NCBI GenBank assembly: GCA_045401115.1
Contig: CP174359.1
Span: forward strand, 419,247-483,246
Length of the DNA stretch: 64,000 nucleotides
Reading direction: 5' to 3'
Source: Candidatus Phycocordibacter aenigmaticus
GTDB lineage: Bacteria; Patescibacteriota; Minisyncoccia; Phycocordibacterales; Phycocordibacteraceae
Shown: positions 1,157 to 62,900 of the stretch, piece by piece
How positions within the stretch are numbered: the first letter of the stretch is position 1
Layout of the letters: each line of letters starts with the position of its first letter
Made by a program: the position numbers and the translations under genes
Notes under the pieces: model-generated
Seen by the model: the letters and a program-made list of their open reading frames with translations, nothing else
What the model was told of the DNA's origin: nothing
Database searches by the model: none

Positions 1157-2446
1157 ATGAAACCGTTCCAACTCGGCATGATTGCGGCGTTTGCCCTTCT
1201 CGCCCTAATATCAATTACTATTTTTGCGACATTCTCTGGTTGTGACAGTGAGTCAGTTGGTTCGGTCACTATTTGGGGCACTGTCTCTGAAGAGACTATG
1301 AGACTCGTATTTAATGAAGTTCGTAATACACACGGCGGCTTTAACGGAGTGAGTTATGAAATGGTACCGGCGGATACTTTGATTACTAACTTAGTAGAAG
1401 CCATTGCAGCTGGGCGTGGTCCTGATTTAATCTTGTTGCCGGCAGCCTCTATTGGTAGTGAACAAGATAAATTACTTGTTATTCCATACTCTGAAATATC
1501 ACGGCGAAGTTTTCAAGACAGTTTTGTTGAGGCGGGCGAGATTTTCCTTGATGAACGTGGTGTTTTAGGATTGCCGTTTTATATTGATCCATACGTGATG
1601 TATTGGAACCGTTCGCTATTTTCACAAGCAGGTATTCCTCGTCCAGTGCGGTATTGGGATGAATTCTCAGATGTTGCTCCGCTTCTCTCACAAGCAAACG
1701 AATCAGGGACACTTACACAAAGTGCGGTGGCACTAGGTGAGTGGGGGAATGTTAATCATGCAAAAGATATCTTCTTATCATTGATTATTGGTTTAGGAAA
1801 TCCAATTGTGCAGAAAAATCAAGAAGGCGAGTATCAGGTAACTTTGACTGCACGCGGTGAAGGATCGGAATTACCAGCAGCGTCCGCGCTCCGTTTCTTT
1901 ACTGAGTTTGCCGACCCGGTACAACGTGTGTATTCATGGAATCGTTCATTACCGGAAGCGCGTGAAGCGTTTCTTGCAGGAGATTTGGCAGTCTATCTCG
2001 GTAAAGCTAGTGAGGTAACTGCTATTCGTGCTTCTAATCCTAACTTAAACTTTGATATTGCCCCATATCCTGAAGTGCGTGGTGGAGTAGTTGCTGTTCC
2101 AGCAGATTTGTATGCTTTTTCGGTGCCACGTGGCGCAAGTAACACTAGTGGCGCACTTGCGGCAGCACAGATACTTTCAAATAGTGTTGCGCAAAAAGCA
2201 CTCGTGAGTGTCACTGGGTTACCTTCGGTTCGACGCGACGTACTGTCAGTCTCTCCGGAAAATCCTTACGAAGCTACGTTTAGAGACGCTGCACTTAATG
2301 CATATTCCTTCCGTGACCCTAATCCAAAACTTTCTGACGATATCTTTAAGCGTATCGTTGAAGGTGTTTCAAGTGGTCGCTTTCGGATTAATGAAGCACT
2401 GCGTAGTGGACAGGAGGAGCTCGAAGAGCTTCTTGGGGTACAATAA
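1157..2446 (+). CDS. ABC transporter extracellular solute-binding protein (family 1), lipoprotein
   Basis: Signal peptide + lipobox (TFSGC); ~430 aa SBP_bac_1-like; no adjacent permease genes (orphan SBP). Confidence 0.5.
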   Translation: MKPFQLGMIAAFALLALISITIFATFSGCDSESVGSVTIWGTVSEETMRLVFNEVRNTHGGFNGVSYEMVPADTLITNLVEAIAAGRGPDLILLPAASIGSEQDKLLVIPYSEISRRSFQDSFVEAGEIFLDERGVLGLPFYIDPYVMYWNRSLFSQAGIPRPVRYWDEFSDVAPLLSQANESGTLTQSAVALGEWGNVNHAKDIFLSLIIGLGNPIVQKNQEGEYQVTLTARGEGSELPAASALRFFTEFADPVQRVYSWNRSLPEAREAFLAGDLAVYLGKASEVTAIRASNPNLNFDIAPYPEVRGGVVAVPADLYAFSVPRGASNTSGALAAAQILSNSVAQKALVSVTGLPSVRRDVLSVSPENPYEATFRDAALNAYSFRDPNPKLSDDIFKRIVEGVSSGRFRINEALRSGQEELEELLGVQ

Positions 2447-2476
2447 AGATACAACTTTATTGGTAATATACACATT

Positions 2477-2824
2477 ATGAAATCTTTTTTAATACATCTC
2501 TTTATACTCGCTCTTTTTGTAGCACCAAGCGCTGTGATGGCTTCAAGTCACGGCGGTCTCAATAACCCACTTGGACCAGACTCAATTTCTGAATTTTTCA
2601 CTGCACTTCTCGGATTGATTGCACAAATTGCCTTTCCTGTCGTGGTACTTTTTATTATCTTTATCGGCTTCCGTTTTGTACAACACTCAGCTACAGGAGA
2701 TGCAGAGGGGCTCAAGAAGGACCGAGAATACTTTCTTTGGGCGTTAGTGGGTGCGTTGCTAGTACTTGGTGCACAAGCACTATCATTCGCTATTGAAGCA
2801 ACTGTTAATAATCTTACGCCGTAA
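2477..2824 (+). CDS. T4SS-pilin-like (TrbC/VirB2-like) small membrane protein with signal peptide
   Basis: Signal peptide then two TM helices around GDAEGLKKDREYFLWALVG motif shared with the next three genes. Confidence 0.45.
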   Translation: MKSFLIHLFILALFVAPSAVMASSHGGLNNPLGPDSISEFFTALLGLIAQIAFPVVVLFIIFIGFRFVQHSATGDAEGLKKDREYFLWALVGALLVLGAQALSFAIEATVNNLTP

Positions 2825-2829
2825 TTACT

Positions 2830-3135
2830 ATGGGAAACGATCTTACTGACTTCATTAATCAGCTTACAGGAATCATCAGCGCGATCATCCCGATTCTCGT
2901 ATCGTTAGCACTCCTTTTCTTTGTGTGGGGACTTGCTCAGTGGCTCTTAAATATGGCTGATTCAGAAAAGCACAAGGAGGGTAAACAACGTATGATGTGG
3001 GGCATTATTGCATTATTCTTTATTGTGTCAGTGAGCGGTCTTATTATGGTACTCCAAGCAACCTTTTTCGGGATGTCTGCAGGTTCGCTGTCACCGAATA
3101 AAGATTCTCAGCCGACTAAGTCGTTTGGTTTCTAA
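2830..3135 (+). CDS. T4SS-pilin-like small membrane protein (paralog)
   Basis: Motif FxWGLAQWLLN-ADSEKHKEGKQRMMWGIIALF; two TM helices; tandem paralog. Confidence 0.5.
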   Translation: MGNDLTDFINQLTGIISAIIPILVSLALLFFVWGLAQWLLNMADSEKHKEGKQRMMWGIIALFFIVSVSGLIMVLQATFFGMSAGSLSPNKDSQPTKSFGF

Positions 3136-3245
3136 TAACATTTTGAAACTGTGCGATATCCACATAGGCACGCATAAAATCAATGCGGAGAGCAGTAAAT
3201 GCTATACTAGAGGGGTACTATAACTATAGATAATATAAAAACATT

Positions 3246-3533
3246 ATGACAACGTTAAATGATATTTTGCAAACTATCGCTGGCTTAATTGACCTTGCAA
3301 CACCAATTGTGGTTGCTCTTGCACTGCTGTACTTCTTCTGGGGTCTTGCGCAGTACATCCTTAATGCAGGCGATGAGAACAAGAAGAAAGAAGGTCGTGA
3401 AATCATGATCTGGGGCATTATTGCTCTCTTCGTTATGGTTTCTATCTGGGGTATTGTAAACGTCATCCAAGACACGTTTGACCTTCGTGGCGGTACTATT
3501 GAAGTGCCACAAGTTGAGACCAACAATAGGTAA
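3246..3533 (+). CDS. T4SS-pilin-like small membrane protein (paralog)
   Basis: Motif FFWGLAQYILNAGDENKKKEGREIMIWGIIALF; own RBS/AT-rich promoter. Confidence 0.5.
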   Translation: MTTLNDILQTIAGLIDLATPIVVALALLYFFWGLAQYILNAGDENKKKEGREIMIWGIIALFVMVSIWGIVNVIQDTFDLRGGTIEVPQVETNNR

Positions 3534-3538
3534 ACTGT

Positions 3539-3751
3539 GTGAGTGAGGAACAGTATACAGGAAATGAAAAAGACGTAACGCCTGCAAATGCGCTCGGAAG
3601 ACTTTCTGAGCGTACGCAGGCGTCTCGTTTTACCGGATTACTTATCGCGTTGGTGTTGGTTTTTGTATTAGCGCTTTTAATCGGTTTAGTGGTACGAGGT
3701 GTCACGGGTAAGGAAAATGTCCCTGAAGTACCACGTGTCAATCAACAATAA
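3539..3751 (+). CDS. small single-TM hypothetical protein
   Basis: 70-aa ORF with one hydrophobic helix between pilin-like genes; no homolog recognised. Confidence 0.25.
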   Translation: MSEEQYTGNEKDVTPANALGRLSERTQASRFTGLLIALVLVFVLALLIGLVVRGVTGKENVPEVPRVNQQ

Positions 3752-3760
3752 CCCCTGCAT

Positions 3761-4021
3761 ATGAACGATCTCTCAATCTTTATAGATAACTTTGTACGTT
3801 TTATTATCAATCCACTGATCGGACTTCTTATGGCTTTGGCGGTTGTGTATTTCTTATGGGGAGCAGCACAGTTGGTACTCAACGGAGGAAGCGAAGAGGG
3901 GAGAAAGAAAGGTAAAGATGCTTTATTGTGGGGATTAATTGGTCTCTTTATTATGGTTGCTGTTTTCGGTATTCTACGTGTCGTCGTAGGTACATTTGTG
4001 CCTGAAGCAGTGACTTTCTAG
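3761..4021 (+). CDS. T4SS-pilin-like small membrane protein (paralog)
   Basis: Motif YFLWGAAQLVLNGGSEEGRKKGKDALLWGLIGLF; fourth tandem paralog. Confidence 0.5.
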   Translation: MNDLSIFIDNFVRFIINPLIGLLMALAVVYFLWGAAQLVLNGGSEEGRKKGKDALLWGLIGLFIMVAVFGILRVVVGTFVPEAVTF

Positions 4022-4114
4022 GGGTTATATTTTAGAGCGACAAATAGCATTTTATTTGATACAGTATCTACGCTGCTCTTGTGGCAGCATTGTTCTTTAC
4101 AGGATGTGTCATAT

Positions 4115-4198
4115 GGGCGAGTGGCGGAATTGGTAGACGCGCGTGGCTTAGGACCACGTATCTTCGGATGTGGAGGTTCGAGTCCTCTCTCGCCCACA
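4115..4198 (+). tRNA. tRNA-Leu (anticodon TAG), type II
   Basis: Acceptor GGGCGAG/CTCGCCC, D-arm GGAATTGGTAGAC, anticodon loop CTTAGGA, long variable arm, T-arm GGAGGTTCGAGTCCTCT. Confidence 0.8.
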
Positions 4199-4252
4199 AA
4201 ATTTAAAATCCTCAAAGTGTAAGCTTTGGGGATTTTTAAATTGCATAGAGGC

Positions 4253-4380
4253 GAAGAGGACTCGAAAGACGGAGGCGGTATACAAGACGAACGAAGTGAG
4301 TGCTTGTCGCCGAGGCCGGGCAGGAGGTCCTTATGCGCGTAAGCGAATTAGGAACCTGACGCCGAGCCTCTCTCGCCCAC
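4253..4380 (+). repeat. tRNA-3'-associated structured element, family A (copy A1, at tRNA-Leu-TAG); terminator follows at 4381..4422
   Basis: Begins AGAGGACTCGAA (inverted copy of the tRNA T-arm); conserved core AGACGGAGGCGG..CCGGGCAGGAGGTCCTTATG..CGAATTAGGAACCTGACGCCGAG; ends CCTCTCTCGCCCAC (direct copy of tRNA 3' end); the 25-nt tRNA trailer and terminator are also duplicated. Confidence 0.55.
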
Positions 4381-4495
4381 AAAATTTAAAACCTCAGAGT
4401 GTGAGCTCTGGGGATTTTTATATTTCGTAGAGGGGGAGAGGAATGGCTACAAATAAATAAACCGCACACGAGGAGTGCGCGGTTTATTTATTTTG

Positions 4496-4578
4496 TGCCG
4501 GGAGTGGGACTCGAACCCACACGGCCGAACGGCCCGGGGATTTTAAGTCCCCTATGTCTACCATTCCATCACCCCGGC
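4496..4578 (-). tRNA. tRNA-Leu (anticodon TAA), type II
   Basis: Revcomp gives acceptor GCCGGGG, anticodon loop CTTAAAA, long variable arm, T-arm GTGGGTTCGAGTCCCAC. Confidence 0.8.
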
Positions 4579-4753
4579 AAGGGATTAAGATACAACATGC
4601 TAGTATCTAGTGTATTGTATCTTGGCCTGCCACTGGAGCAAGCTTTGCTTACCTCGGTAAAGAACTAAATAAAACAGACTGTAATGTTCTATTTTTATTA
4701 TATCCAAGATAAGCAATTCTTATCTTGGCAGCGTCAACACTTGTGTGTCAGCT

Positions 4754-4827
4754 GGAGGCCACGGCGGGAATCGAACCCGCGCATCGAGGTTTTGCAGACC
4801 CCTGTGTTTCCACTTCACCACGTGGCC
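4754..4827 (-). tRNA. tRNA-Cys (anticodon GCA), CCA encoded
   Basis: Revcomp: acceptor GGCCACG, anticodon loop CTGCAAA, T-arm GCGGGTTCGATTCCCGC, 3' CGTGGCC-T-CCA. Confidence 0.8.
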
Positions 4828-5227
4828 AATATCAACAAGAATACTACGATATAGAGCATAAACAAAGAGGGCTATAAAAAATGGAATTAATTTGCTAGAG
4901 TATGCAGTATCGCCTATGAGAGATATCTTATGGGTGATCACTACCGCCTGGAAGAAAAATCTTGCAGGCGGGGCGTGGTAACATAATGCGCTCATCCTTT
5001 TGCTTCACAGCAACAAGAAAGTAAGTAAAACTTTCTTTCGGCGAAGGTTCGAGTATAAAAAATATTTTATACTCCTCACTCTTCTTGAAAGTAAACAAGC
5101 TTCCTTTCTTGTCTTGTTCGCAAAAGACGCGCATTATCGTGAAGCACTACCGCCTGTAAGAGAAATCTTTCAGACGTTCATTTCGGAGATAATGTGAAAG
5201 CAAGCTTTCTCGTTATCCTCCTCAATT

Positions 5228-5299
5228 CCGCCTGTAGCTCAATGGTAGAGCAGCGGCCTTTTAAGCCGTTGGTTGAAGGTTCGAGTCCTTCCGGGCGGA
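5228..5299 (+). tRNA. tRNA-Lys (anticodon TTT)
   Basis: Acceptor CCGCCTG/CGGGCGG, D-arm GCTCAATGGTAGAGC, anticodon loop CTTTTAA, T-arm GAAGGTTCGAGTCCTTC. Confidence 0.8.
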
Positions 5300-5336
5300 C
5301 ACGTTTTAAAAACAGCATCCCATGCTGTTTTTTTCG

Positions 5337-5473
5337 TGCCGCCCGGAAGGACTCGAACCAGAAAGGGGGTCGGGGGAACTGGGTGTTCCCCCGTGGAGGA
5401 GGTTACACGGAACCGTGGGTTCCGTGAGCGCAGGTGAGAATACACCGAGCAGTGAGATTCCTAGTGGGCGGAC
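5337..5473 (+). repeat. tRNA-3'-associated structured element, family B (copy B1, at tRNA-Lys)
   Basis: Begins GCCGCCCGGAAGGACTCGAACC (inverted copy of tRNA-Lys 3' end); core AGGGGGTCGGGGG-hairpin-CCCCCGTGGAGGAGG, CGGAACCGTGGGTTCCG hairpin, TGAGCGCAG, GAGCAGTGAGATTCC; ends in degenerate direct copy ..GGGCGGAC; hairpin terminator follows. Confidence 0.55.
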
Positions 5474-5710
5474 TTGATAGGAAAAAGCAAACTGCTTTGC
5501 TTTTTCCGATACAAGTCCGAGGCGGAGGCATGTTTCATTTTTGCTGCAGTTCATGGCAAAAATGAAAAGCCGAGCCGTGGTCAAGCGCACTTAGTAGATT
5601 TCAAGCGAAGCGAAGAAATATACTTAGTGACGGGTGACGATATGATAAAAATGATTTATATACGCCTGTAAATTTGAAACCATAAAATAAAACACTTCGT
5701 TTAAAGTGTT

Positions 5711-6025
5711 TTATTTTTCTTCTTCGTTATATTCTTCAGCGCCGGAATATCCTCCAAGATGTGGATCAGGAAGAAATTTAACACGAGGGAGGTATTTTAA
5801 AGAAACTGATTTTTTAAGATAACGCTTAAACTCATCGCGATTACGATTAAGAAAATCTGTTGCTGCATGGAGACCAGTTTCAGGGAATGCACTAATAAAA
5901 ATATTTGCACAACCACGTTGATCAACTTGAACTCCCGTAACCGTAATCATTGTTTGACGGTTTGACTCACGGTTAATAAAATCCGACGCTGCTTTTTTTA
6001 GGGCCTCAGCCGCACGCTCCTTCAT
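5711..6025 (-). CDS. rbfA: ribosome-binding factor A
   Basis: 104 aa; RbfA-like KH fold sequence; immediately downstream of infB (conserved infB-rbfA linkage). Confidence 0.7.
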   Translation of the reverse strand: MKERAAEALKKAASDFINRESNRQTMITVTGVQVDQRGCANIFISAFPETGLHAATDFLNRNRDEFKRYLKKSVSLKYLPRVKFLPDPHLGGYSGAEEYNEEEK

Positions 6026-6027
6026 AT

Positions 6028-7545
6028 CTATGATTCTTTGGTACGTGTTTCAATATAATCACCTCCAGTAATATCAGCTTTCGATTCAATTTGGGCACCA
6101 AATTCGGCTCCTTCGCTGACGCTCGACACATCTGATTTCTGTGTTTGAACATTAAGCACTTTTCCATGTCCCACATCAATATCACGACGTTTAATAATTA
6201 CTGAGGCACCGCGTTCAATTGTCCCGCTTTCTACGCGACCACCAACCACATGCTTTGAGCCAGTAGTAGAGAAGTGTTTTAATATTTTTGCGTTTCCCGT
6301 CACAATAATTTCTGGTTCTTTTGGGGCAATACGTTCAACCTCTGTGTGCAACCAATCAACTAGTTCATAGATAATCTCTTTACTTTCAAGACGTACGTTA
6401 TTTCGTTCTGCTAAATCTTTTGCTGATGAATCAACTTTTACATTAAATCCGGCAATTATTGAATCTTCAAAACCAACGAGTTGCTTTACGTCATTTTCAG
6501 AAATAGCACCCACACCTATATCAGCAATAATGAGCCGAGCATTTTCTTGTGGCATTTTATCAAGCTCATACTGTAACGCTTCAATTGATCCGGCAGTATC
6601 TGCCTTTAAAATAATACGAATTGGTTTTTTAGTGTCCTGAGCATCATGAACATTTTGTGCCGGCAGTGGCGGTTCACCTGCTGCAGCAGCAGCCTCTGCT
6701 TCTTTTTTACTTTTTACTACATACATTTCACTACCCACGCGCGGTTCTTTGGAAAAACCTATAATTTTTGCCGGTTGACCACATGATATTTCTTTTACTT
6801 TCTCCCCAAGGGTATTTTCAATAATTCGCAGTGGAGCAAACGCATCATCAGCAACGGCAAATGAACCTGCAGAAAAAGTTCCATCACGTACAACAACTGT
6901 TGCGGCAACACCGCTTTTTGGATCACGGCTTGATTCAATAACTACCGCGCGCGGTGGAAGACTTGTATCGCAGTGAATATCTTCAAGATCGGTTACTAAG
7001 AGGATGATATCCAAAAGTTCATCAATACCTTCACCTGTTTTTGATGAAACTGCCACGTGAGGCACTGAACCACCAAGGCCTTCAAGGTAAATTCCTTCTT
7101 TCATGACCGTCTCTTTCGCGTGATTGAGATTTGCGTTTTCTTTATCTATTTTAGTAAACGCAACGATATATGGAATATCAGCTTTAGTAATTGCGTTCCA
7201 TGCCTCAATTGTCTGTGGTTTTACTCCGTCGTCAGCAGCGACAACAAGAATAGCAATATCGGCGGCTGAGGCTCCACGGCGACGCATTTCCTGGAATGCT
7301 TCGTGTCCCGGGGTGTCAATAAAAGAAATAGCGCGCGCAGCTCCTTCTTTAGGGGTATGGTTAAGTTCATAGGCGGAAATTCCTTGAGTGATACCTCCTG
7401 TTTCTCCTTCGGCTACTTTTGCCTTTCGGATATAGTCTAAGAGTGACGTCTTTCCGTGATCAATGTGTCCAACAACAGCGACGACGGGCTGTACTCTTTT
7501 CTTTGATGTAGGTGTTTTAGGCATAATTAATCCTAAGCAAAACAC
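6028..7545 (-). CDS. infB: translation initiation factor IF-2 (short form, no long N-terminal domain)
   Basis: G-domain VGHIDHGKTSLLD, DTPGHEAF, NKIDK; beta-barrel and C2 domains; true start probably MPKTP at 7524. Confidence 0.85.
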   Translation of the reverse strand: MFCLGLIMPKTPTSKKRVQPVVAVVGHIDHGKTSLLDYIRKAKVAEGETGGITQGISAYELNHTPKEGAARAISFIDTPGHEAFQEMRRRGASAADIAILVVAADDGVKPQTIEAWNAITKADIPYIVAFTKIDKENANLNHAKETVMKEGIYLEGLGGSVPHVAVSSKTGEGIDELLDIILLVTDLEDIHCDTSLPPRAVVIESSRDPKSGVAATVVVRDGTFSAGSFAVADDAFAPLRIIENTLGEKVKEISCGQPAKIIGFSKEPRVGSEMYVVKSKKEAEAAAAAGEPPLPAQNVHDAQDTKKPIRIILKADTAGSIEALQYELDKMPQENARLIIADIGVGAISENDVKQLVGFEDSIIAGFNVKVDSSAKDLAERNNVRLESKEIIYELVDWLHTEVERIAPKEPEIIVTGNAKILKHFSTTGSKHVVGGRVESGTIERGASVIIKRRDIDVGHGKVLNVQTQKSDVSSVSEGAEFGAQIESKADITGGDYIETRTKES

Positions 7546-7599
7546 GTAACTGCTTGAAAAGCAATAAGGACATTCTTATGTGCACCTGACAAGGGCGCT

Positions 7600-8100
7600 T
7601 TATGAAAGTGATTGTCGAGCTTGTTTGATTACTTGATTTTCTTCATCTGACAATTCGCGTTCAGATGTAAATGTTTTAACTTCTTTAGCATAGACTCGTA
7701 CGCCGTCACGTGAATGGATGCCAGACAACACTATCCCGTTACCTCCCTCATTAACCAAGGCAGCAACAAAACTTTGTTGCCCACCTGCGTTTTGGAAAGG
7801 ATCAAAATGTGTAAGTGCAACACCACGCACACTATGCGCTAAACGACCATCGACATTTTCAAGTGCACGTTCAGTCGTTTGTGCGTGTGATTCAAGTTGT
7901 CCTACTCGAGTTTCAAGGCTCACAATTATATCTTCAAGCGATGTTCCGCTTTTTCCTTTAGTTAAACGATTAATGCGAATGTTTAAAAAAATAACGCAAA
8001 TAAGTAGCACAATACCGATGATGCTGAGCGCCAAAAGTACCGGCTTATTTTGAACTACATATAGGAAATAATTGAACGCGGTGTCGACGTATTCATTCAT
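7600..8100 (-). CDS. DUF4446-like membrane-anchored protein
   Basis: N-terminal TM helix; coiled segment; motif LTHFDPFQNAGGQQSF...VRVYAKEV typical of DUF4446 family (recognition by memory, moderate). Confidence 0.4.
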   Translation of the reverse strand: MNEYVDTAFNYFLYVVQNKPVLLALSIIGIVLLICVIFLNIRINRLTKGKSGTSLEDIIVSLETRVGQLESHAQTTERALENVDGRLAHSVRGVALTHFDPFQNAGGQQSFVAALVNEGGNGIVLSGIHSRDGVRVYAKEVKTFTSERELSDEENQVIKQARQSLS

Positions 8101-9484: not shown

Positions 9485-10369
9485 ATGGAAATCGAAGAAC
9501 TCACTAAATCACAAATTGTTCTCTTGGTACTATTGGTGTCATTTATGACCTCAATAGCAACTGGTATTGTAACGGTTTCACTCCTTGCACAGGCACCGCC
9601 TGCGGTAACACAAACAGTAAACCGTGTGATTGAGCGCACTGTTGAGACCGTTGTGCCGGCTGAAGGGCAAACTGCGTCAGTAGTAAAAAAAGAAACCACC
9701 GTCGTCGTTAAAGAAGACGATCTTATTACTGAATCAATAGATGCAGGTTTTGAAAGAGTGGTACGGATTCACAAAACCCAAGCAACTTCTACACCTATTG
9801 TTGCCCTCGGCGCCATTATTGGTGACGGCACCGTTATCACTGACTTGTCTGTCGTAACTGGCGCACATGCCGTATCTATAGAAGGGGAAACGTATCAGTA
9901 TGAATTAAGTGCATCCATTAAGGAAGCGGGCATTGCTATCTTAAGTGCCACTGGTACTGCGCCAACCACAGAAGCGTTTACTTCAGTTGGAGTGAGTTCT
10001 CTTAAATTGGGACAAACCTTGATCGGGTTATATGGCACCACCATCGATCGTATTGCAATGAGTACGCTCTCAGGGAAGGCAACACTTACTATTGTGAATG
10101 ATGAGTCAAATACACCATCTTCAGATGAGGAGAAAAAAGACACCGGTTCACCAATACGGTCAATAAATGCAACAGTAGATGCAGCTATGACACCTGGCGC
10201 TCCGCTTATCACTGTCTTTGGAGAATTGGTTGGCATTAGTACGGAAGTTTCTCGCGAAGAAGGAAAAGGTACTTTTGTTGCCGTATCTGATATCTCAGCA
10301 TTGTTAAGTAAATCAGCAGAAGCGGCGCGAAAGAAAAATGAAACTGCGTCAACTACTGCGCAACAATAA
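9485..10369 (+). CDS. membrane-anchored hypothetical protein with degenerate trypsin/HtrA-like fold
   Basis: N-terminal TM; Gly/Thr-rich beta segments (GDGTVITDLSVVTGAH, TPGAPLITVFGELVGI) resembling S1C proteases but without clear catalytic triad. Confidence 0.3.
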   Translation: MEIEELTKSQIVLLVLLVSFMTSIATGIVTVSLLAQAPPAVTQTVNRVIERTVETVVPAEGQTASVVKKETTVVVKEDDLITESIDAGFERVVRIHKTQATSTPIVALGAIIGDGTVITDLSVVTGAHAVSIEGETYQYELSASIKEAGIAILSATGTAPTTEAFTSVGVSSLKLGQTLIGLYGTTIDRIAMSTLSGKATLTIVNDESNTPSSDEEKKDTGSPIRSINATVDAAMTPGAPLITVFGELVGISTEVSREEGKGTFVAVSDISALLSKSAEAARKKNETASTTAQQ

Positions 10370-13251: not shown

Positions 13252-13296
13252 CAAATTAAAAACTCGAGCTTTTGCTCGGGTTTTTAATTTGTTGCA

Positions 13297-13435
13297 TGCC
13301 GTGAGCAGGATTCGAACCCGTAGGGGGTCGGGGGCGGCGGAACGCCCCCGTGGAGGAGTTAGGCCGTAGGCCGACATAGAACCGCGGGTTCTATGAGCGC
13401 AGCGAAGCGAGCAGTGAGATTCCAGCCCGGCGCAC
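13297..13435 (+). repeat. tRNA-3'-associated structured element, family B (copy B2, at tRNA-Tyr)
   Basis: Imperfect inverted copy GAGCAGGATTCGAACC; core GTAGGGGGTCGGGGG..CCCCCGTGGAGGAG, TAGAACCGCGGGTTCTA hairpin, TGAGCGCAG, GAGCAGTGAGATTCC; ends in direct copy AGCCCGGCGCAC; terminator 13446..13475. Confidence 0.55.
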
Positions 13436-13483: not shown

Positions 13484-13615
13484 GCGCCGGGCTGGATTCG
13501 AAAGAAGAGGGGGTCGGGGAGAGGATAGTCTCCCCGTGGAGGAGGCTACACGGAACCGTGGGTTCCGTGAGCGCAGGCGAGAATACGCCGAGTAGTGAGA
13601 TCCCAGCCCGGTACA
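13484..13615 (+). repeat. tRNA-3'-associated structured element, family B (copy B3, tandem to B2)
   Basis: Begins GCGCCGGGCTGGATTCGAA = exact reverse complement of tRNA-Tyr 3' end; same core as B1/B2; ends in diverged direct copy TCCCAGCCCGGTACA; terminator 13621..13652. Confidence 0.55.
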
Positions 13616-13712
13616 TCTCCATAAACGGCTCACCCCACTGAGCCGTTTATTTCGTTGGGGAAAGCTTCACAGAGAGGCTTTGGAAGGCATTTTACGCGTG
13701 TATAATGGCCTT

Positions 13713-14720
13713 ATGAAGAGTTTTTTCATAGTGGGAGCCGTAATAGTTTTGTTCGTCCTCCCGTTGAGCGCACTCGCTTCGAATCATTTTACTAGCGACG
13801 GGTTTTCTTTGGTACCAGAAGTTGTCCGCAATATAACCAACCCTCAGGCGGTACAAGCATGTGACCTCGTAACGTTGATAGATAACATAGTAAGTTTTGC
13901 TACATATATTGCAGTATTTATTGCGACTATTATGTTTGCCTATGCTGGGTTCCTCTATGTTACAGCGGCATCGCGCCCAGAAAACCTCAATCAAGCAAAA
14001 GGTATTTTTGGTAAAGTATTTCTCGGGCTCATTCTTGTGCTTGGGGCATGGCTCATTATTAACTTAGTGATGTCTGTGCTGTTCAATGATGATATTGGCG
14101 GTAATTGGACGTCTTTAGGAGATTGCGGTGAACGACTAGAATTTAATCCTGAGGACTATGCGCCAGTTAATCCTGGTGTAAACACATATGTGCCGGACGA
14201 TCCTTATGATCTTGACCAGCGACGTGAAGCTGATTTAAGGGATTGGTTTGCGAGTTGTTATGTAGGAGTGAAAGATGTGAGCTCTACAAGGGTGAGTGGT
14301 ACGAGTGACGCAGCTGCAGTGTATGCCTGCGACCTTAAAAGAGATTGTGAAGCCACTCTTGGAGACAACACTCCACGTGATAGGACTCAGCCAGTTGATA
14401 TACATGATGACGACTCGGGAGTGTGCGGTATTGTAATCACCGGCGGCTCTGAAGGTGGTCATGCTGGTGGCACTCGCCCCGGTTCACATGGTGCTGGCGA
14501 TAAGCTCGATTTTCGAGTAACAGCAACTTTACAAAGTTACATCCAAGCACAGGAAGACGCAGGTCGCTTTACTCCTGTAGAGCCGCCGAGTTTTGGTGAT
14601 AGACAGTGGGTGGATACTGAAACAAACGCTGTGTGGACCCTAGAAGATGAGGGTGGGTCTAATCAGCATTATGATGTGTGTATAGAAAATTGCCGTACTC
14701 CATCTGCACAAGGCTCTTGA
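13713..14720 (+). CDS. T4SS-pilin-like N-terminal module fused to ~230-aa Cys/Asp-rich extracellular domain
   Basis: N-terminus (signal peptide, ATYIAVFIATIMFAYAGFLYV..ENLNQAKGIFGKVFLGLILVLGAWLI) matches the pilin-like family at 2477-4021; long C-terminal extension unique. Confidence 0.4.
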   Translation: MKSFFIVGAVIVLFVLPLSALASNHFTSDGFSLVPEVVRNITNPQAVQACDLVTLIDNIVSFATYIAVFIATIMFAYAGFLYVTAASRPENLNQAKGIFGKVFLGLILVLGAWLIINLVMSVLFNDDIGGNWTSLGDCGERLEFNPEDYAPVNPGVNTYVPDDPYDLDQRREADLRDWFASCYVGVKDVSSTRVSGTSDAAAVYACDLKRDCEATLGDNTPRDRTQPVDIHDDDSGVCGIVITGGSEGGHAGGTRPGSHGAGDKLDFRVTATLQSYIQAQEDAGRFTPVEPPSFGDRQWVDTETNAVWTLEDEGGSNQHYDVCIENCRTPSAQGS

Positions 14721-16811: not shown

Positions 16812-16844
16812 AAAAAAACGGCTCACTGTAGTGAGCCGTTTTTT
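16812..16844. terminator. bidirectional rho-independent terminator, AAACGGCTCA..TGAGCCGTTT family
   Basis: AAAAAAACGGCTCACTGTAGTGAGCCGTTTTTT; perfect palindrome with flanking A/T runs. Confidence 0.7.
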
Positions 16845-16886: not shown

Positions 16887-17035
16887 CTGCACAGAGTTGG
16901 AGTCGGCGTCAGCTCACATCGCTATAATTGTTCGCTCCACTCCAATTCTAGCGTGTGGCTCCTGCCCGGACTCGCCGACAAGCACTCGCTCTCGCTCGTC
17001 TTGTGTACCGGCTCCGTCTTTCGACTCCCATCTGG
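16887..17035 (-). repeat. tRNA-3'-associated structured element, family A (copy A4, at tRNA-Leu-CAA, minus strand)
   Basis: Read on minus strand downstream of tRNA-Leu(CAA): inverted copy CCAGATGGGAGTCGAA, core AGACGGAGCCGGTACACAAGACGAGCGAG..GAGTGCTTGTCGGCGAGTCCGGGCAGGAG..GCTGACGCCGAC, ends in diverged direct copy TCCAACTCTGTGCAGC; ~85% identical to A1 core with compensatory changes in the hairpin. Confidence 0.55.
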
Positions 17036-17088
17036 TTGCGACAAATAAAAATCACCGCACACTTTCGTGTACGGTTCATTTATTTTGT

Positions 17089-17169
17089 GCCCAGAGTGGG
17101 AGTCGAACCCACATCCCCGAAGAGACACGATTTTGAGTCGTGCGCGTATACCAATTCCGCCATCTGGGC
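17089..17169 (-). tRNA. tRNA-Leu (anticodon CAA), type II
   Basis: Revcomp: acceptor GCCCAGA/TCTGGGC, anticodon stem CACGA loop CTCAAAA, long variable arm, T-arm GTGGGTTCGACTCCCAC. Confidence 0.8.
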
Positions 17170-29629: not shown

Positions 29630-29681
29630 CTAGGTTACGTTACACACCCGATACGAGAGTATCGGGTGTTTACGTACACCT

Positions 29682-29844
29682 TTCCGGGACAGGGACTCGA
29701 AAGACGGAAGCGCAGGGCTCCCGTTGTGCTGAGTTATATGCACAATGGGAACGCTGAGTCCGGGCAGGAGGTCGTTATGAGTTTTCATGCCGGCAGGCAG
29801 GCAAAACGAATTACGAACCTGACGCCGAGTCCCTGTCCCGGAAC
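29682..29844 (+). repeat. tRNA-3'-associated structured element, family A (copy A2, at tRNA-Gln); hairpin terminator 29845..29880
   Basis: Begins TTCCGGGACAGGGACTCGAA = exact reverse complement of tRNA-Gln 3' end; core AGACGGAAGCG..hairpin..GAGTCCGGGCAGGAGGTCGTTATG..CGAATTACGAACCTGACGCCGAG; ends GAGTCCCTGTCCCGGAAC (direct copy from mid T-loop). Confidence 0.55.
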
Positions 29845-29912
29845 TAGAAAGAAAAGCCGCTTTCAGCGGCTTTTCTTAGTTCCGGAGACAAGAACGGTGC
29901 CTGCGCACCGTT

Positions 29913-30051
29913 CGGGGGACTCGAACCGCCGGAGGCATGTCGCGCGCAGCGGAGCGAGCACGAAGCCGAGGCGTGGCCCGCGGTCGTTATGAATATTTTC
30001 TGAAAGAAAATATGAATTACGAACCATCAGGCTCTAGCCCTGTCCCGGAAC
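29913..30051 (+). repeat. tRNA-3'-associated structured element, family A (copy A3, tandem to A2, more diverged); two terminators 30054..30082 and 30088..30120
   Basis: Begins GGGGGACTCGAACC, contains GCCGGAGGC.., GGTCGTTATG, ..GAATTACGAACC.., ends CCCTGTCCCGGAAC direct copy. Confidence 0.5.
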
Positions 30052-30243
30052 AAAATAAACGGCTCACCCAGGTGAGCCGTTCTTTGCTAAACGGCTCAGT
30101 GCACTGAGCTGTTTATTTTTTAAATAAAAATCAAAAATGTGATGCTTTAAAGAAAGAGATTTTTGAGGTGGCTGGGTTACCTCTAAAAACAGTGCCAGTT
30201 GGGTCGAATTTTGCGTTAGCGATCAATGAAATTGTGGGGTAAC

Positions 30244-34455: not shown

Positions 34456-34485
34456 ATAAACGGCTCATTCCATTGAGCCGTTTAT
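34456..34485. terminator. terminator hairpin of AAACGGCTCA..TGAGCCGTTT family
   Basis: ATAAACGGCTCATTCCATTGAGCCGTTTAT. Confidence 0.6.
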
Positions 34486-45974: not shown

Positions 45975-46006
45975 CAAAAACGGCTCATCAAGGTGAGCCG
46001 TTTTTG
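45975..46006. terminator. terminator hairpin of AAACGGCTCA..TGAGCCGTTT family (lies inside the ORF-track N-terminal extension of cysS)
   Basis: CAAAAACGGCTCATCAAGGTGAGCCGTTTTTG. Confidence 0.6.
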
Positions 46007-54648: not shown

Positions 54649-54689
54649 AAAAAATAAACGGCTCAGTGCACTGAGCCGTTTATTTTTTT
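54649..54689. terminator. terminator hairpin of AAACGGCTCA..TGAGCCGTTT family
   Basis: AAAAAATAAACGGCTCAGTGCACTGAGCCGTTTATTTTTTT. Confidence 0.7.
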
Positions 54690-59944: not shown

Positions 59945-62900
59945 ATGCACGCTATTTTTAAAGCAACACGTCACCGTATTTTTCTCGCCACCATTGTGGG
60001 TATGTTGGTTCTTTTTCCTATAGGTGTTGACGCGTTCCTTGACTTTAATGGAGGTGGTTTTTTTAATCCTGATCCAGGCGATCAAGGATTCCCTAATCCA
60101 GGCGGAGGCGGACCTCTTAGTATTAGTTGTGGAGCTACTCCTCGAACAATTTCTTCAGGAGGATCAGTTAATTGGTTCTCTTCTGTGTCAGGAGGAACTG
60201 GTTCTTATACGTATTCATGGAGTGGGACTAATGGGTTGTCTGGTAACGCGTCAAATGTGTTTAAAACATATAGTACTGTAGGTACTAAAACAGCACAGGT
60301 TACTGTATATAGTGGCGGACAAACGGCAAGCGATACATGTGGGACGGTACAAGTAAGCGCTCCAACACCAAGTCCGACAGTATCATTATCAGCGAACCCA
60401 ACATCAATTGCAGCAGGAAATACCTCAACACTTTCATGGTCGTCATCTAACGCCACGAGTTGTACCGGTTCAGGATTCAGCACCGGAGGCGCTACGAGTG
60501 GTTCACGTTCGGTGTCGCCAAGTTCGAACACCACATACGGTATTGTTTGTAGTGGCGCAGGAGGAACAGTATATAAAGCAGCATCGGTTTCAGTAACTCA
60601 AGCGGTAGCAACCAATCTTTCCATCTACCCAACATCAATTGTACGCGGAAATTCTGCAACCATCTCATGGTCGTCATCTAACGCCACGAGTTGTACCGGT
60701 TCAGGATTCAGCACCGGAGGCGCTACGAGTGGTTCACGTTCGGTGTCGCCAAGTTCTTCAACAACATATAGTGTGACCTGTCAAAATTCAGTTTCATCAT
60801 CTTCGAAGAGTAGGACATTGACCGTCACCACTCCAACTCCAGCCCCAACCGCCTCACTCTCAGCATCACCGTCATCACTTACGCAAGGCCAGTACACAAC
60901 ACTTTCATGGTCGTCATCTAATGCCAGTAGTTGTGCTGGTTCCGGGTTTAGCACCTCAAACCGTACCAGCGGTTCAGTGACCATATCACCAAACAGCACC
61001 ACAAATTATTCGGTGACGTGTTACGGCACAGGCGGAACCGCATCTGATAGTTCACGAGTGACCGTTACCACGCCACTTCCATCATCATGTAGCAGTGGTT
61101 CTCGTCAAACAGTGAGTATGGCGTTATATAACACAAATAATGAGGCATCAGGTATCTGGGGCAGTGCAAGTATTAATAGTTCATATGCTCCGGGTGAGAC
61201 GATACGCGCAACTGGCTCATTATGGTCAGACGATTATCCACGTGCGTGTCCTTCACTATCTATTAACGGCACCTCATTTAATCTTGGTTGTCAGTTGCAA
61301 CTAGCACCAAGCAAAGTGCTCACAGTTGGTACAGCACCATCAACTCCAGGAACGTATCAAATGTGGTGGGCAGTGGGCAGCACAGGAAGCTATCGACTTG
61401 ATCGTATTTGTCCTATGACATATACCGTTGTTGCACCCGCCCCAACCACCTCACTCTCCGCATCACCTTCTTCTATTACACGTGGTGACAACAGTACACT
61501 TTCATGGTCATCGACTAATGCCACAAGCTGTTCTGGGAATGGTTTTAACACTTCAAACCGTACCAGCGGCTCGGTATCCGTATCACCAAACAGCACCACA
61601 AATTATTCGGTGACGTGTACTGGTGGTGGGGGAAGTCGTTCAGATTCTAGCACTGTTACTGTCACCACTCCAACTCCAGCCCCAACCGCCTCACTCTCAG
61701 CATCACCGTCATCACTTACGCAAGGCCAGTACACAACACTTTCATGGTCGTCATCTAATGCCAGTAGTTGTGCTGGTTCCGGGTTTAGCACCTCAAACCG
61801 TACCAGCGGTTCAGTGACCATATCACCAAACAGCACCACAAATTATTCGGTGACGTGTTACGGCACAGGCGGAACCGCATCTGATAGTTCACGAGTGACC
61901 GTTACCACGCCACTTCCATCATCATGTAGCAGTGGTTCTCGTCAAACAGTGAGTATGGCGTTATATAACACAAATAATGAGGCATCAGGTATCTGGGGCA
62001 GTGCAAGTATTAATAGTTCATATGCTCCGGGTGAGACGATACGCGCAACTGGCTCATTATGGTCAGACGATTATCCACGTGCGTGTCCTTCACTATCTAT
62101 TAACGGCACCTCATTTAATCTTGGTTGTCAGTTGCAACTAGCACCAAGCAAAGTGCTCACAGTTGGTACAGCACCATCAACTCCAGGAACGTATCAAATG
62201 TGGTGGGCAGTGGGCAGCACAGGAAGCTATCGACTTGATCGTATTTGTCCTATGACATATACCGTTGTTGCACCCGCCCCAACCACCTCACTCTCCGCAT
62301 CACCTTCTTCTATTACACGTGGTGACAACAGTACACTTTCATGGTCATCGACTAATGCCACAAGCTGTTCTGGGAATGGTTTTAACACTTCAAACCGTAC
62401 CAGCGGCTCGGTATCCGTATCACCAAACAGCACCACAAATTATTCGGTGACGTGTACTGGTGGTGGGGGTTCAGATTCTGATACGGCTCGTGTCACTGTT
62501 AATGATCCGCCTCCAGAACCAACGGCAAATATTTCTGTGAACCCGTCTACAATTATCCGTGGAAACAGCAGTACGCTTTCATGGTCATCGACTGCCGCAA
62601 GTTTTTGTACTGGCTCAGGATTCAGCACTTCAAACCGTACGAGTGGCTCGGTATCCGTATCACCAAACAGCACCACAAATTATTCGGTGACGTGTAGTGG
62701 AACTGGTGGCAGTGATTCTGACACTGCGCGCGTGACTGTAAACGACCCCGCCCCAACCACCTCACTCTCCGCATCACCTTCTTCTATTACACGTGGTGAC
62801 AACAGTACACTTTCATGGTCATCGACTAATGCCACAAGCTGTTCTGGGAATGGTTTTAACACTTCAAACCGTACCAGCGGCTCGGTATCCGTATCACCAA

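Follow-up and report, generated by a model that had tools for sequence, protein, structure and literature searches.

Integrative elements that target tRNA genes are known from the att sites of their tyrosine integrases, and they include non-autonomous derivatives that can be mobilised in cis. RNAs processed from tRNA transcripts are a second type of neighbour, as exemplified by the 3' external transcribed spacer of E. coli leuZ, by mascRNA and by the herpesvirus tRNA-miRNA units; to our knowledge, none of these RNAs has a stem in which one strand copies the neighbouring tRNA directly and the other in inverted form, and none forms multi-family arrays behind most tRNA genes. Tandem inversion duplications, for their part, are triplications with an inverted middle copy which arise at quasi-palindromes. 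Plant tRNA-snoRNA genes also yield RNAs from tRNA transcripts, according to the statement in PMC12045711 that relies on its references 66-67.

The stretch of 64,000 nt from Candidatus Phycocordibacter aenigmaticus that was analysed here (the window) carries units which share with the tRNA-targeting integrative elements a direct repeat extending from the T-loop to about the end of the gene, with regeneration of the tRNA, as well as tandem accretion at one tRNA and a fixed orientation relative to it. Unlike integrative elements, these units are 120-190 bp long and gene-free, with no integrase in the ORFs scanned; they bear an antisense copy of the target, a terminator of their own and a conserved, covarying and strand-specific fold, and their cores are common to units specific for many different tRNAs. 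The locus at 4177-4442 may well represent one complete unit and the stump of another, belonging to a modular non-coding element that would colonise the 3' sides of tRNA genes in Patescibacteria by insertion in the T-loop, a reading which we favour while holding it to be slightly short of an even chance.

The element, designated A1, is located behind a tRNA-Leu(TAG) gene of the plus strand (4115..4196 or 4197; ARAGORN, with 57.4 bits for Rfam tRNA) that does not encode CCA and whose T-stem 5' strand, GGAGG, and T-loop, TTCGAGT, occupy 4172-4176 and 4177-4183, respectively. From 4177 to 4442, and on the same strand, the order is tRNA (S0), T, AS, core A, S1, T' and AS' stump. S0 (4179..4197) extends from C56 of the tRNA to one position past the discriminator, as delimited by boundary statistics on 45 sense and 53 antisense copies, and is the tRNA segment that is duplicated in sense (S1) and in antisense (AS). 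It is followed by T (4198..4243), an A-rich trailer and an intrinsic-terminator hairpin with a U-tract (TTTTT in the DNA), whose palindrome reaches outwards into both S0 and AS, so that the S0-T-AS stretch is predicted to fold as a single 93-nt hairpin of -48.6 kcal/mol. AS itself (4248..4266) was detected as an inverted repeat facing the tRNA from T54 to the acceptor 3' strand; its acceptor part has decayed, and the arm, with which the element begins, is exact at 4255-4266, where AGAGGACTCGAA is the exact complement of 4177-4188. It contains AGAGG, the exact complement of CCTCT, and not the GGAGG of the tRNA's own T-stem 5' strand, which indicates that AS is the exact complement of S and no copy of that 5' strand.

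The core of A1 (4264..4363) is a three-way junction, based on alignments with the second member of the family in the window (A2), on RNAalifold and on pair counts. Its junction reads GAAAGA, and its helices P2 and P3 occupy 4270-4317 and 4319-4363, the latter with a tandem G.A motif and a GUAA loop. It departs from the family consensus by two defects, namely GAGGCC where GAGUCC is expected and a bulged P1; the fold has a predicted energy of -53.9 kcal/mol (z = -3.0) and the covariance-model score is 113 bits. S1 (4364..4380), identified by repeat and alignment, runs from G57 to one position past the discriminator and is a gapped copy of tRNA nt 57-73, exact from 61, in which one T of the T-loop is missing (CGAG-CCTCT). 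Pairing of S1 with AS results in P1, which closes the core. The second trailer and terminator, T' (4381..4425), is paralogous to T by terminator scan, alignment and fold; it consists of a hairpin at 4392-4413 followed by ATTTTTAT and passes the intrinsic-terminator scan on the tRNA strand. Both T and T' have the G+C-rich hairpin and T-run of predicted terminators, with folds of -18.8 and -15.3 kcal/mol, respectively. Finally, the remnant of a second antisense arm (AS' stump, 4428..4442, supported by direct repeat and alignment) reads TAGAGGGGGAGAGGA, aligns with TAGAGGCGAAGAGGA at 4246-4260 and breaks off ahead of CTCGAA, directly next to the terminator of a convergent tRNA-Leu(TAA) gene. The A1 unit measures 183 bp and has no ORF.

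As reported in the initial annotation, the 3' end of the tRNA is duplicated together with its trailer and terminator. The 25-nt sequence CCTCTCTCGCCCACAAAATTTAAAA occurs identically at 4184-4208 and at 4367-4391, which is far beyond chance, and the longer stretches 4184-4262 and 4367-4445 agree at 69/80 positions (86%) with one gap, the block comprising the 3' strands of the T-stem and acceptor stem, the discriminator, the A-rich trailer and the terminator hairpin. The compensatory change described between the two terminators is real and corresponds to CAAAG/CTTTG becoming CAGAG/CTCTG, that is one A-T to G-C pair, the only one among four substitutions and one indel in the hairpin. The block does extend past the tRNA, but the end first assigned to it falls ca. 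20 nt short, as similarity continues into the AS' stump. Since it also spans this stump, the long duplication is more plausibly an incomplete second unit of this family, derived either from tandem repetition or from an older unit that has lost its core; trailer and terminator would then mark the beginning of a coreless unit. The 55-nt extension had also been regarded as what a site-specific integration would produce, a view which is not supported in that form, because identity ends 0-5 nt beyond the discriminator in some 33 of the 45 sense copies; duplications of trailer and terminator as long as that of A1 form a minority (ca. 8/45). The A1 locus is identical in two independent Logan assemblies, which excludes an assembly artefact.

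The same architecture was found at five of the eight tRNA genes of the window. A2, also of family A, lies on the minus strand (16887..17040) behind tRNA-Leu(CAA) (17087-17169, minus strand), and its arms, now decayed, match that tRNA. A3, the third member (29681..29844, plus strand), is located behind tRNA-Gln(TTG) with a perfect AS of 20 nt and a perfect S of 19 nt, and is followed in the tRNA-Gln array by Gln-2 (29879..30051, plus strand), which belongs to family C and in whose AS an extra hairpin separates the part facing the acceptor from that facing the T-stem. Family B, known from four members, is represented by Lys-1 behind tRNA-Lys (5339..5473, plus strand; perfect 21-nt AS) and by two successive units behind tRNA-Tyr, Tyr-1 (13294..13435, plus strand) and Tyr-2 (13484..13616, plus strand; perfect 19-nt AS), the AS being more decayed in the unit that adjoins the tRNA. 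At least three core families (A, B and C) thus occur in the window and a fourth (D) elsewhere. In three arrays of the window the outermost terminator is the generic hairpin of this genome, AACGGCTCA-N6-TGAGCCGTT, which is also found 3' of protein genes, and the inner terminators are unit-specific. Contigs ended in or beside arrays in two of three short-read look-ups for this organism, so that the arrays may contribute to assembly breaks.

Beyond the window, many tRNA genes in other Patescibacteria (CPR) genomes show the same succession of tRNA, terminator hairpin, AS, structured core, S (tRNA 56-73) and further terminator. An AS at +47 to +72 and/or an S at +142 to +188 was found for 31/50 tRNAs of the window and the CPR loci, a share that is biased because the loci examined were selected for carrying an element. 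In most of the 45 sense copies identity begins 18-20 nt before the end of the tRNA as called by ARAGORN, at about C56, and in 32/53 antisense copies AS ends opposite T54; CCA is copied only where the tRNA gene encodes it. A boundary at the end of the gene, with CCA included only if encoded, is expected if the element must regenerate the tRNA 3' end from DNA. Arrays combine different core families, and these have identical boundaries. Several loci depart from the common type. L062 and L100 are plain partial copies of the tRNA 3' part without insert, the sense copies of L060 and L062 are longer than that of A1, and the direct-type variants L035, L060, L087 and L075 show a sense T-stem/anticodon-stem of variable length followed by an insert in the T-loop. 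In L035, L060 and L087 this insert sits between C56 and G57 of the partial tRNA copy, which recalls the non-canonical T-loop tRNA introns of Thermoproteales, inserted at positions such as 56/57; unlike these, no bulge-helix-bulge was seen, the host is bacterial, and the tRNA 5' half is missing from the interrupted copy, upstream of which lies an intact tRNA.

Family A is a real fold, a three-way junction with strong covariation. In its alignment 93.3% of the cells are paired, versus 75.6% in shuffled and 27-41% in slid controls, and double changes affect 20/25 pairs, a figure attained in 0/500 shuffles; these statistics are inflated by the relatedness of the sequences and by the fitting of the alignment to the model. 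Compensatory changes in otherwise invariant helices were also seen among 13 members that lie outside the selection by search pattern. The sense strand folds better than the antisense strand in 33/33 cores (mean -6.5 kcal/mol), and purine-rich motifs of the RGCGAR type occur 12 times in sense and once in antisense in the window elements, about one being expected. G.U pairs are scarce (25/865 pairs), which is low for an RNA family.

Family A was found behind 19 isoacceptors covering 14 amino acids, and its arms match the local tRNA every time. In one genome the cores behind a tRNA-Thr (L009) and a tRNA-Asp (L010) are identical at 103/106 positions, whereas the flanks agree at ca. 50%. One tRNA-Leu gene, identical over the 83 nt compared, is filled at L121 and empty at L129 and L058. 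These empty sites, the recurrence of one core behind so many isoacceptors and the left edge of identity in the T-loop (ca. C56), shared by nearly all of the 45 other copies, sustain the earlier proposal that the duplication at A1 is associated with an insertion. The competing possibility of a simple tandem tRNA pseudogene was rejected, as the sense copy of A1 lacks the whole 5' part of the tRNA and the arm upstream of it is antisense, and no coreless version of this arrangement was found for the A1 locus. An orthologous empty site of exactly this locus was not found either: exact-protein look-ups returned the same strain only, and a metagenome scan anchored on the T-arm and acceptor of the tRNA yielded 120 loci, none of them close (best 45/57, in the tRNA 5' part). 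The initial interpretation is therefore partly supported; what it overlooked is that the core has a covarying fold, that an antisense arm is present and that the phenomenon extends across the genome and the clade.

Similarity searches relate the elements to none of the families examined. With Rfam 15 at gathering score only tRNAs were detected in the whole window, and E-values up to 10 for 4000-5800 gave hairpin-like chance matches, all below half their thresholds; this negative result spans hammerhead, twister, pistol, hatchet, HDV-like, T-box, tmRNA and RNase P. A type II hammerhead was considered because GAAA and CUGACG occur in the correct order; it was rejected, as position 9 has a C and the covariation (GAC/GUC, GGU/ACC) of the GGC/GCC helix beside CUGAC is incompatible with that fold. 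Likewise, AGUCCGGGC, a 9-nt match to conserved region I of RNase P RNA, was taken as a coincidence, with no strand to pair as P4 and no Rfam match. The anatomy does not fit T-box, tmRNA or Y-RNA-like readings, and the TIGR-Tas system was found to be unrelated on checking the paper. Patterns for families A and B returned from IMG/VR a single chance match in coding sequence, BLAST of 4198-4425 gave no match in phage and plasmid collections, and a three-block pattern search gave 22 genome matches of which five, in G+C-rich coding sequence of other phyla, were discarded as chance. No recombinase, integrase, reverse transcriptase, transposase or RNA ligase was detected in the Pfam scan of 40 window ORFs. 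An autonomous relative bearing ORFs was not found, the only finds being the segment at L018, a 2-kb stretch with three genes and no recombinase between two unit copies, and an unrelated tRNA cluster in L110. Short, non-coding, hairpin-forming, multicopy and at gene 3' ends, the elements are like REP/REPIN, Correia and Rickettsia palindromic elements and MITEs, which are often co-transcribed; these have fixed terminal repeats, short target duplications and no tRNA specificity, unlike the present arms, which are retailored to each tRNA with a boundary at a fixed tRNA position. Derivation from a MITE or IS was rejected, given that every locus has arms of its own, copied from the local tRNA, while the cores are unchanged. 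Family A is absent from Rfam, no description of these elements was found in the literature searched, and the element family is apparently undescribed.

In the model that we favour, a unit composed of S, its own terminator T, AS and core would enter the T-loop by site-specific insertion between positions 55 and 56, and the S that follows would pair with AS and close the core. The incoming unit would supply a replacement 3' end and terminator, keeping the tRNA functional and displacing the old 3' end downstream. Arrays would grow by repeated insertion and unequal crossing-over, and cores would be exchanged between existing frames. At A1, T and T' may both be under selection because each must stop transcription. 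Since no enzyme is encoded nearby, the activity must come in trans; the 40 ORFs without recombinase, reverse transcriptase or transposase in any case count against the model. It gives no explanation for the re-matching of S and AS from one tRNA to another, and exchange of cores between pre-existing frames merely shifts the problem to the origin of the frames. Furthermore, the order of decay in the Tyr array misfits a simple rule by which the newest unit is next to the tRNA. The core would act in folded, single-stranded form with the sequence of the tRNA-sense strand, most likely in a read-through or operon RNA and alternatively as a single-stranded DNA intermediate. The elements likely act at the RNA level, because some copies lie within tRNA operons without an upstream terminator: the element of L010 (7550-7672) occurs between two tRNA-Thr genes with a 4-nt spacer, and those of L052 and L029 are between tRNA-Lys and tRNA-Leu. 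At most loci, A1 included, a strong predicted terminator separates the tRNA from AS, which argues against efficient transcription of those copies.

These operon-embedded copies are also in keeping with structured RNA genes maintained by the host, namely small RNAs freed from tRNA transcripts by RNase Z after the discriminators and by RNase P before the next tRNA. Like known tRNA-derived RNAs, the elements are located in the tRNA 3' trailer or between tRNAs, where release by RNase Z, RNase P or RNase E is possible; with an AS:S stem that would imitate the acceptor/T-arm helix of the tRNA next to it, the RNA might serve as a tRNA 3'-end mimic, a decoy or a backup acceptor strand for read-through transcripts. 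Such a role, which is compatible with mobility, would fit the strand specificity of fold and motifs, the unpaired discriminator and following 1-2 nt in S-T-AS palindromes, the predicted read-through fold of 4115-4425, in which the 5' acceptor strand of the tRNA pairs with the distal S1, and the perfect (18/18) copy of the tRNA tail that S1 represents in ca. 21/29 family-A elements, even where AS has decayed. The tRNA-Asp units of three genomes, with similar terminator hairpins, similarly decayed AS and a conserved core, further suggest long vertical retention under selection. We nevertheless regard this explanation as somewhat unlikely. A stem requires complementarity only, which leaves the match to the neighbouring tRNA without reason; most loci have the strong terminator ahead of AS; both arms have decayed in the old copies A2 and L004; and the absence of elements from many related tRNA genes indicates that they are dispensable. 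The exact retailoring to any tRNA would be accounted for by an RNA-mediated copy-back, in which a core RNA would be joined into the T-loop of a primary tRNA transcript and a reverse transcriptase would copy from the terminated 3' end through S and core, an early stop giving the 5'-truncated sense copy and snap-back on its own cDNA the antisense arm, before the product recombined into the tRNA locus via the shared S-terminator homology. This route would also explain why CCA is copied only if gene-encoded, why genomic trailer is copied, the direct-type variants L035, L060, L087 and L075, and the near-identity of first and last terminators in young-looking units (39/40 at L011 and 38/40 at L014, with 86% at A1). 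It is less probable still, and we consider it doubtful: ca. 33/45 copies have unrelated terminators ahead of AS and behind S1, no reverse transcriptase is encoded nearby among the 40 window ORFs, the similarity that passes the U-tract into AS or even the core at A1, L010 and L011 misfits a template ending at the terminator, and none of the many steps required was observed.

Explanations that dispense with a mobile core fare worse. The succession S, terminator loop, AS, core and S amounts formally to a triplication whose middle copy is inverted, and with its sense-antisense-sense order and both turnarounds at hairpins (the TCGA of the T-loop is itself palindromic) it resembles a tandem inversion duplication; a purely local rearrangement, tandem or by fold-back between the T-arm and terminator palindromes with the core as filler, could also be read into the unit-level tandem repeats at L011, at L084 (tRNA-Cys) and at L141 and into the insert-free copies at L062 and L100. 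Unlike in tandem inversion duplications, one junction here always carries a conserved, foreign, structured core, at dozens of loci. The conserved covarying cores shared behind 19 isoacceptors in many genomes, the 97% core identity with unrelated flanks inside one genome and the boundaries common to different core families largely refute local rearrangement as a complete explanation and make it very improbable. Hardly credible is the scar of a tRNA-integrated phage or integrative conjugative element deleted down to ca. 180 bp, even though attL and attR classically appear as direct repeats of the tRNA 3' end that begin in the T-loop, and even though the three genes of L018 are flanked by two unit copies. 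Classes of integrase sublocation at tRNA genes were reportedly set out by Williams in 2002. Regarding such an att duplication, the repeat from the loop crossover to about the end of the gene is present at A1, but neither an integrase gene nor a remnant was found in the unit or in the 40 window ORFs; phage, plasmid and IMG/VR similarity is lacking, dozens of loci have the same 100-nt core, with covariation, and an antisense arm is not known from scars of this kind.

A bolder extension of the insertion model, which we consider unlikely, is that of a new genetic cassette system with the universally conserved tRNA T-loop as attachment point, movable folded single-stranded cores, target-copied frames and possibly a circular intermediate. 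The core could be an attC-like recombination site or a T-loop-homing RNA and, on arrival, would come to lie between two copies of the target's 3' end, one inverted and one direct. As with integron cassettes (attC) and the folded attP of CTX phage, the units are small and promoterless and form arrays of one orientation on a fixed platform. In common with attC they have strand-specific imperfect palindromes, structure conserved over sequence and complementary end boxes, here the T-loop-derived TTCGANT and ANTCGAA; structure, strand bias, arrays and boxes are equally compatible with RNA. In contrast to integrons, the platform is any tRNA gene and not an attI beside an integrase gene, the arms copy the target, and the T-loop GTTCRAN differs from the GTTRRRY core site; no dedicated tyrosine recombinase gene of the integron type was found in the 64-kb window. 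The excised trailer, terminator, AS, core and S would fold into a rod; its 5' and 3' ends, produced by RNase Z at two discriminators, would abut on the AS strand, which could allow a circular viroid-like RNA or DNA intermediate.

If these views are correct, a large share of Patescibacteria tRNA genes would carry a hidden layer of structured modular elements that is reported by no current RNA family library or annotation pipeline, and whose arrays could be misannotated as tRNA fragments or att sites. The orphan bacterial RNAs would gain at least four conserved folds, and non-coding elements would have a universal landing site in the tRNA T-loop. The units would also provide a natural case of stems retailored to their target, with copying by a recombinase acting on folded DNA, by a reverse transcriptase or by fold-back replication.

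The tRNA-Leu(TAG) gene called by ARAGORN and Rfam (4115-4196, forward strand) is followed by an element, A1, around which the 3' end of the gene is duplicated. The sequence CCTCTCTCGCCCACAAAATTTAAAA, which comprises the final 14 nt of the tRNA and the following 11 nt, has an exact second copy at 4367-4391, and a one-gap alignment of 4184-4262 with 4367-4445 shows identity at 69 of 80 positions, the repeated block containing the 3' strands of the T-stem and acceptor, the discriminator, an A-rich trailer and the entire terminator hairpin. The initial annotation was thus correct in reporting a duplication of the tRNA 3' end together with its 25-nt trailer and terminator, and the block reaches past the tRNA as proposed, although it ends about 20 nt further on. 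The sequence of the locus is identical in two independent Logan assemblies.

The locus is ordered as tRNA (its own 3' end being S0), terminator (T), antisense arm (AS), core, sense copy (S1), second terminator (T') and the stump of a second antisense arm (4428-4442); this second unit stops after AGAGGA, directly against the terminator of the convergent tRNA-Leu(TAA). A1 begins with an antisense tRNA copy, AGAGGACTCGAA (4255-4266) being exactly complementary to the T-loop and the 3' strand of the T-stem (4177-4188). The arm reads AGAGG, the Watson-Crick complement of CCTCT, and not GGAGG as in the 5' T-stem strand of the gene, and would therefore have been made by copying the 3' strand. The earlier suggestion of an integration holds in part, but the long duplication of trailer and terminator represents a second, partial unit rather than a signature of insertion; the alternative of a tandem tRNA pseudogene is excluded. 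Both hairpins are predicted to be stable (-18.8 kcal/mol for T, -15.3 kcal/mol for T') and T' passes a terminator scan. The compensatory change from CAAAG/CTTTG in T to CAGAG/CTCTG in T' is real but is a single pair among four substitutions and one indel, and is consistent with both hairpins having been kept as terminators. A1 itself has a predicted fold of -53.9 kcal/mol (z = -3.0) and looks like an ageing copy, with GAGGCC instead of the GAGUCC of the family-A consensus and a one-base deletion in S1. In the minimum-energy fold of the read-through transcript 4115-4425, a thermodynamic prediction only, S0 pairs with AS so that the tRNA 3' end is locked in a 45-bp hairpin, and the 5' acceptor strand of the tRNA pairs with the distal S1 (4372-4378).

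A search at every tRNA of the window for sense and antisense repeats of the tRNA tail showed the same unit order behind Leu(TAG), Leu(CAA), Lys, Tyr and Gln, the last two having two tandem units each; AS begins 39-58 nt and S 166-196 nt past the tRNA. On the basis of shared sequence blocks, the cores fall into family A (Leu-TAG, Leu-CAA and Gln-1), family B (Lys-1, Tyr-1 and Tyr-2) and family C (Gln-2 and probably Lys-2). Past the first tRNA-Lys element, the stretch 5474-5645 has GGCGGAGGCATGT and AAGCCGAG in common with the Gln-2 core and a hairpin, CACTTAGTAGATTTC...GAAATATACTTAGTG, nearly identical to the P3 stem of an A-like element of another genome (L004:6908-7051); it is not closed by any clear sense copy of the end of tRNA-Lys. 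Upstream of tRNA-Lys, the region 4920-5227 contains two 43-nt repeats (4928-4970 and 5134-5176, 79% identical), a 14-mer similar to the 5' end of tRNA-Lys in three copies (4939, 5145 and 5223) and an isolated T-stem/T-loop fragment, GAAGGTTCGAGT (5043-5054), with a small AT hairpin behind it, all of which may be remains of other tRNA-derived rearrangements.

The window is otherwise an ordinary CPR chromosome encoding IF-2, ClpB, MiaA, ParB, RelA/SpoT, topoisomerase I, Dus, DnaX, SerRS, CysRS, TGT, UvrABC, ribonucleotide reductase and several T4SS-pilin-like proteins. Directly upstream of tRNA-Leu(TAG) is a series of small T4SS-pilin-like ORFs (2400-4021), and another pilin-domain ORF comes immediately past the tRNA-Tyr array (13680-14720). 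Near the window end (62273-63273), long tandem repeats with periods of 234 and 474 nt (75-86% identity) probably belong to a repetitive coding region.

Among 45 sense copies of all families, the left edge of tRNA identity mostly lies 18-20 nt upstream of where the ARAGORN call ends, at about C56, and the right edge usually 0-5 nt past the discriminator; of 53 antisense arms, 32 end opposite T54. CCA occurs in the sense copies only where the gene encodes it; the source of the copy would therefore be the gene or its primary transcript, not the mature tRNA. Duplication of a long trailer and terminator concerns about 8 of the 45 copies (the A1 locus, L009, L011, L014, L022, the tRNA-Cys of L084 and L141), and in L010, L011 and L014:7762 similarity continues into the next AS or even the first core bases. 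As far as the alignments tell, these latter cases are whole-unit tandem repeats with a truncated second copy.

RNAalifold predicts a three-way junction for the family-A core. P1 is formed by the AS:S pairing, including the T-loop-derived ANUCG/CGANU, and is followed by the junction GAAAGA; P2 is closed by GAC/GUC with a tandem G.A motif, and P3 consists of GGC/GCC, a 3x3 internal loop and a variable stem also having a tandem G.A. In a 33-member alignment, which was fitted to the model and contains related sequences, pairing holds in 93.3% of cells versus 75.6% in column shuffles and 27-41% with slid partners, and changes on both sides affect 20 of 25 pairs, a level reached by none of 500 shuffles. 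Members from outside the pattern selection carry compensatory changes in otherwise invariant helices, GAC..GUC occurring as GGC..GCC, ACC..GGU or AGC..GCU, and GGC/GCC as GAC/GUC or GGU/ACC. By this covariation, the fold of the core is genuine. It is also strand-specific: in 33 of 33 cores the tRNA-sense strand folds more stably than the antisense (mean difference -6.5 kcal/mol), and motifs rich in purines, for example RGCGAR, are found 12 times in sense versus once in antisense in the window elements, with about one expected. Just past the tRNA-Leu element array of L084, a perfect tandem array (10033-10314; 56 nt in five copies, 100% identity) has a unit hairpin (AATTTCTCTTA CGAGTCTGCGAG TTAGAGAAAT) resembling family-A P3 stems.

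A search with a three-block family-A pattern, covering one genome per species, gave 22 stretches, 17 of which are real and, wherever a lineage is named, belong to Patescibacteria (Paceibacteria, Saccharibacteria, Kaiser-, Campbell- and Vogelbacteria, UBA3458); five are fortuitous hits within G+C-rich coding regions of other phyla. With a covariance model derived from 20 members, the family grew to 33 elements, 13 of them outside the pattern selection. Family A is found behind 19 isoacceptors for 14 amino acids, with arms matching the adjacent tRNA in every case, and AS and/or S occur at 31 of the 50 tRNA genes of the window and family-A loci. Nothing similar to the elements was found in viral, phage and plasmid collections, no Rfam family matched them, and no description was found in the literature. 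Two family-A elements (L021, about 3390-3620; L019, about 2230-2430) have no upstream tRNA by ARAGORN; a T-arm and an acceptor 3' end do occur there, after ca. 200 nt of structured-looking sequence, and the tRNA genes may be split by introns. In L110 (7690-7835), the T-stem and acceptor 3' end of a tRNA-Leu recur ca. 130 nt past the gene (ATTCCTCTCTCGCCCGCCA), with complementary stretches (CTCGACTCATT ... AATGAGTCGAG) between the two copies; the tRNA genes of this contig encode CCA and it may not be CPR. The phenomenon may extend beyond CPR.

Loci with the same Lys-Leu gene order, whose tRNA-Leu(TAG) genes show no difference in the 83 nt compared, have two family-D units behind the gene in L121 versus a plain terminator without antisense arm in L129 and L058. 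Most of the 120 metagenome loci that have this T-arm and acceptor are empty and ca. 20 are filled, with various cores. The complete genome OZ253947 has cores behind tRNA-Thr and tRNA-Asp that agree at 103 of 106 positions while their flanks are unrelated. Core families are mixed within arrays, and P2 and P3 modules recombine between genomes and even between families, as illustrated by the Lys-2 P3, closely similar to that of L004:6908. Variants also occur: a partial sense copy in L035, L060, L087 and L075, consisting of the T-stem 5' strand and TTC or starting as far up as the anticodon stem, has a 27-70-nt insert between C56 and G57 (folding as two hairpins in L035 and L060) followed by GAGU and the 3' end; L062 and L100 have plain partial 3' copies without insert, and the tRNA-Val of L004 has a terminator and AS without core. 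Behind the tRNA-Asp of L018, a 2-kb segment (5414-7611) with three genes (233, 149 and 130 aa) lies between two near-identical 195-bp terminator-AS-core-S copies, the second preceded by just the last 5 nt of the tRNA, and has the look of a unit that carries genes or of an island trapped between two units. Short-read contigs of the organism of the window end in or beside the arrays (the ends of L024 and L025, the end of L146 at window position ca. 17000 and the start of L147 at window position ca. 30094), so the repeats appear to break assemblies.

At A1 and most loci a good predicted terminator separates tRNA and AS; in one family-A subgroup its place is taken by a small covarying hairpin (GCACGCAA/UUGCGUGC and variants) without U-tract. 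Such copies lie between tRNA genes, namely at L010:7550-7672, between tRNA-Thr(GGU) and tRNA-Thr(CGU) with a 4-nt spacer past S1, and in L052 and L029, between tRNA-Lys and tRNA-Leu; judged by this arrangement, they would have to belong to tRNA operon transcripts. In the Tyr, Gln and Leu-CAA arrays, the terminator furthest out is a generic hairpin of the genome, AACGGCTCA-N6-TGAGCCGTT, that also ends protein genes, and the inner ones are unit-specific, a pattern which fits units bringing their own 3' end and terminator and displacing the native ones. The generic hairpin has seven window copies, one with a mismatch (13624-13647, 16817-16840, 30058-30081, 30090-30113, 34459-34482, 45979-46002 and 54657-54680); its stem is conserved and its loop variable, so it may represent an independent REP-like repeat.

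Any model has to explain a fixed T-loop junction with one inverted and one direct target copy, a strand-specific conserved fold at that junction, several core families in the same frame of arms, near-identical cores in unrelated frames and unit-specific inner terminators. An ordinary phage scar is very unlikely, the least probable of the origins considered here. The shared cores refute a purely local fold-back duplication as the complete explanation; it is hardly probable overall, its place being at most in the origin of the frames. Reverse transcription of a primary transcript interrupted in the T-loop, with snap-back, would account for the retailoring of the arms and the direct-type variants but fails on the unrelated terminators of most units, and we consider it unlikely. 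That the element is an RNA kept by the host and released by tRNA-processing enzymes is a less remote prospect, if still a doubtful one, and is compatible with mobility. The explanation we tentatively prefer, short of being convinced of it, is a small non-coding cassette. It leaves the matching of the arms to each new tRNA without explanation, and no enzyme for its movement was found among the 40 window ORFs scanned; it accords with the boundary statistics and the terminator pattern as well as with the arrays and empty sites. Such a cassette would insert site-specifically at T-loop position 55/56 and regenerate the tRNA 3' end, with cores exchangeable between frames and the enzyme supplied in trans.
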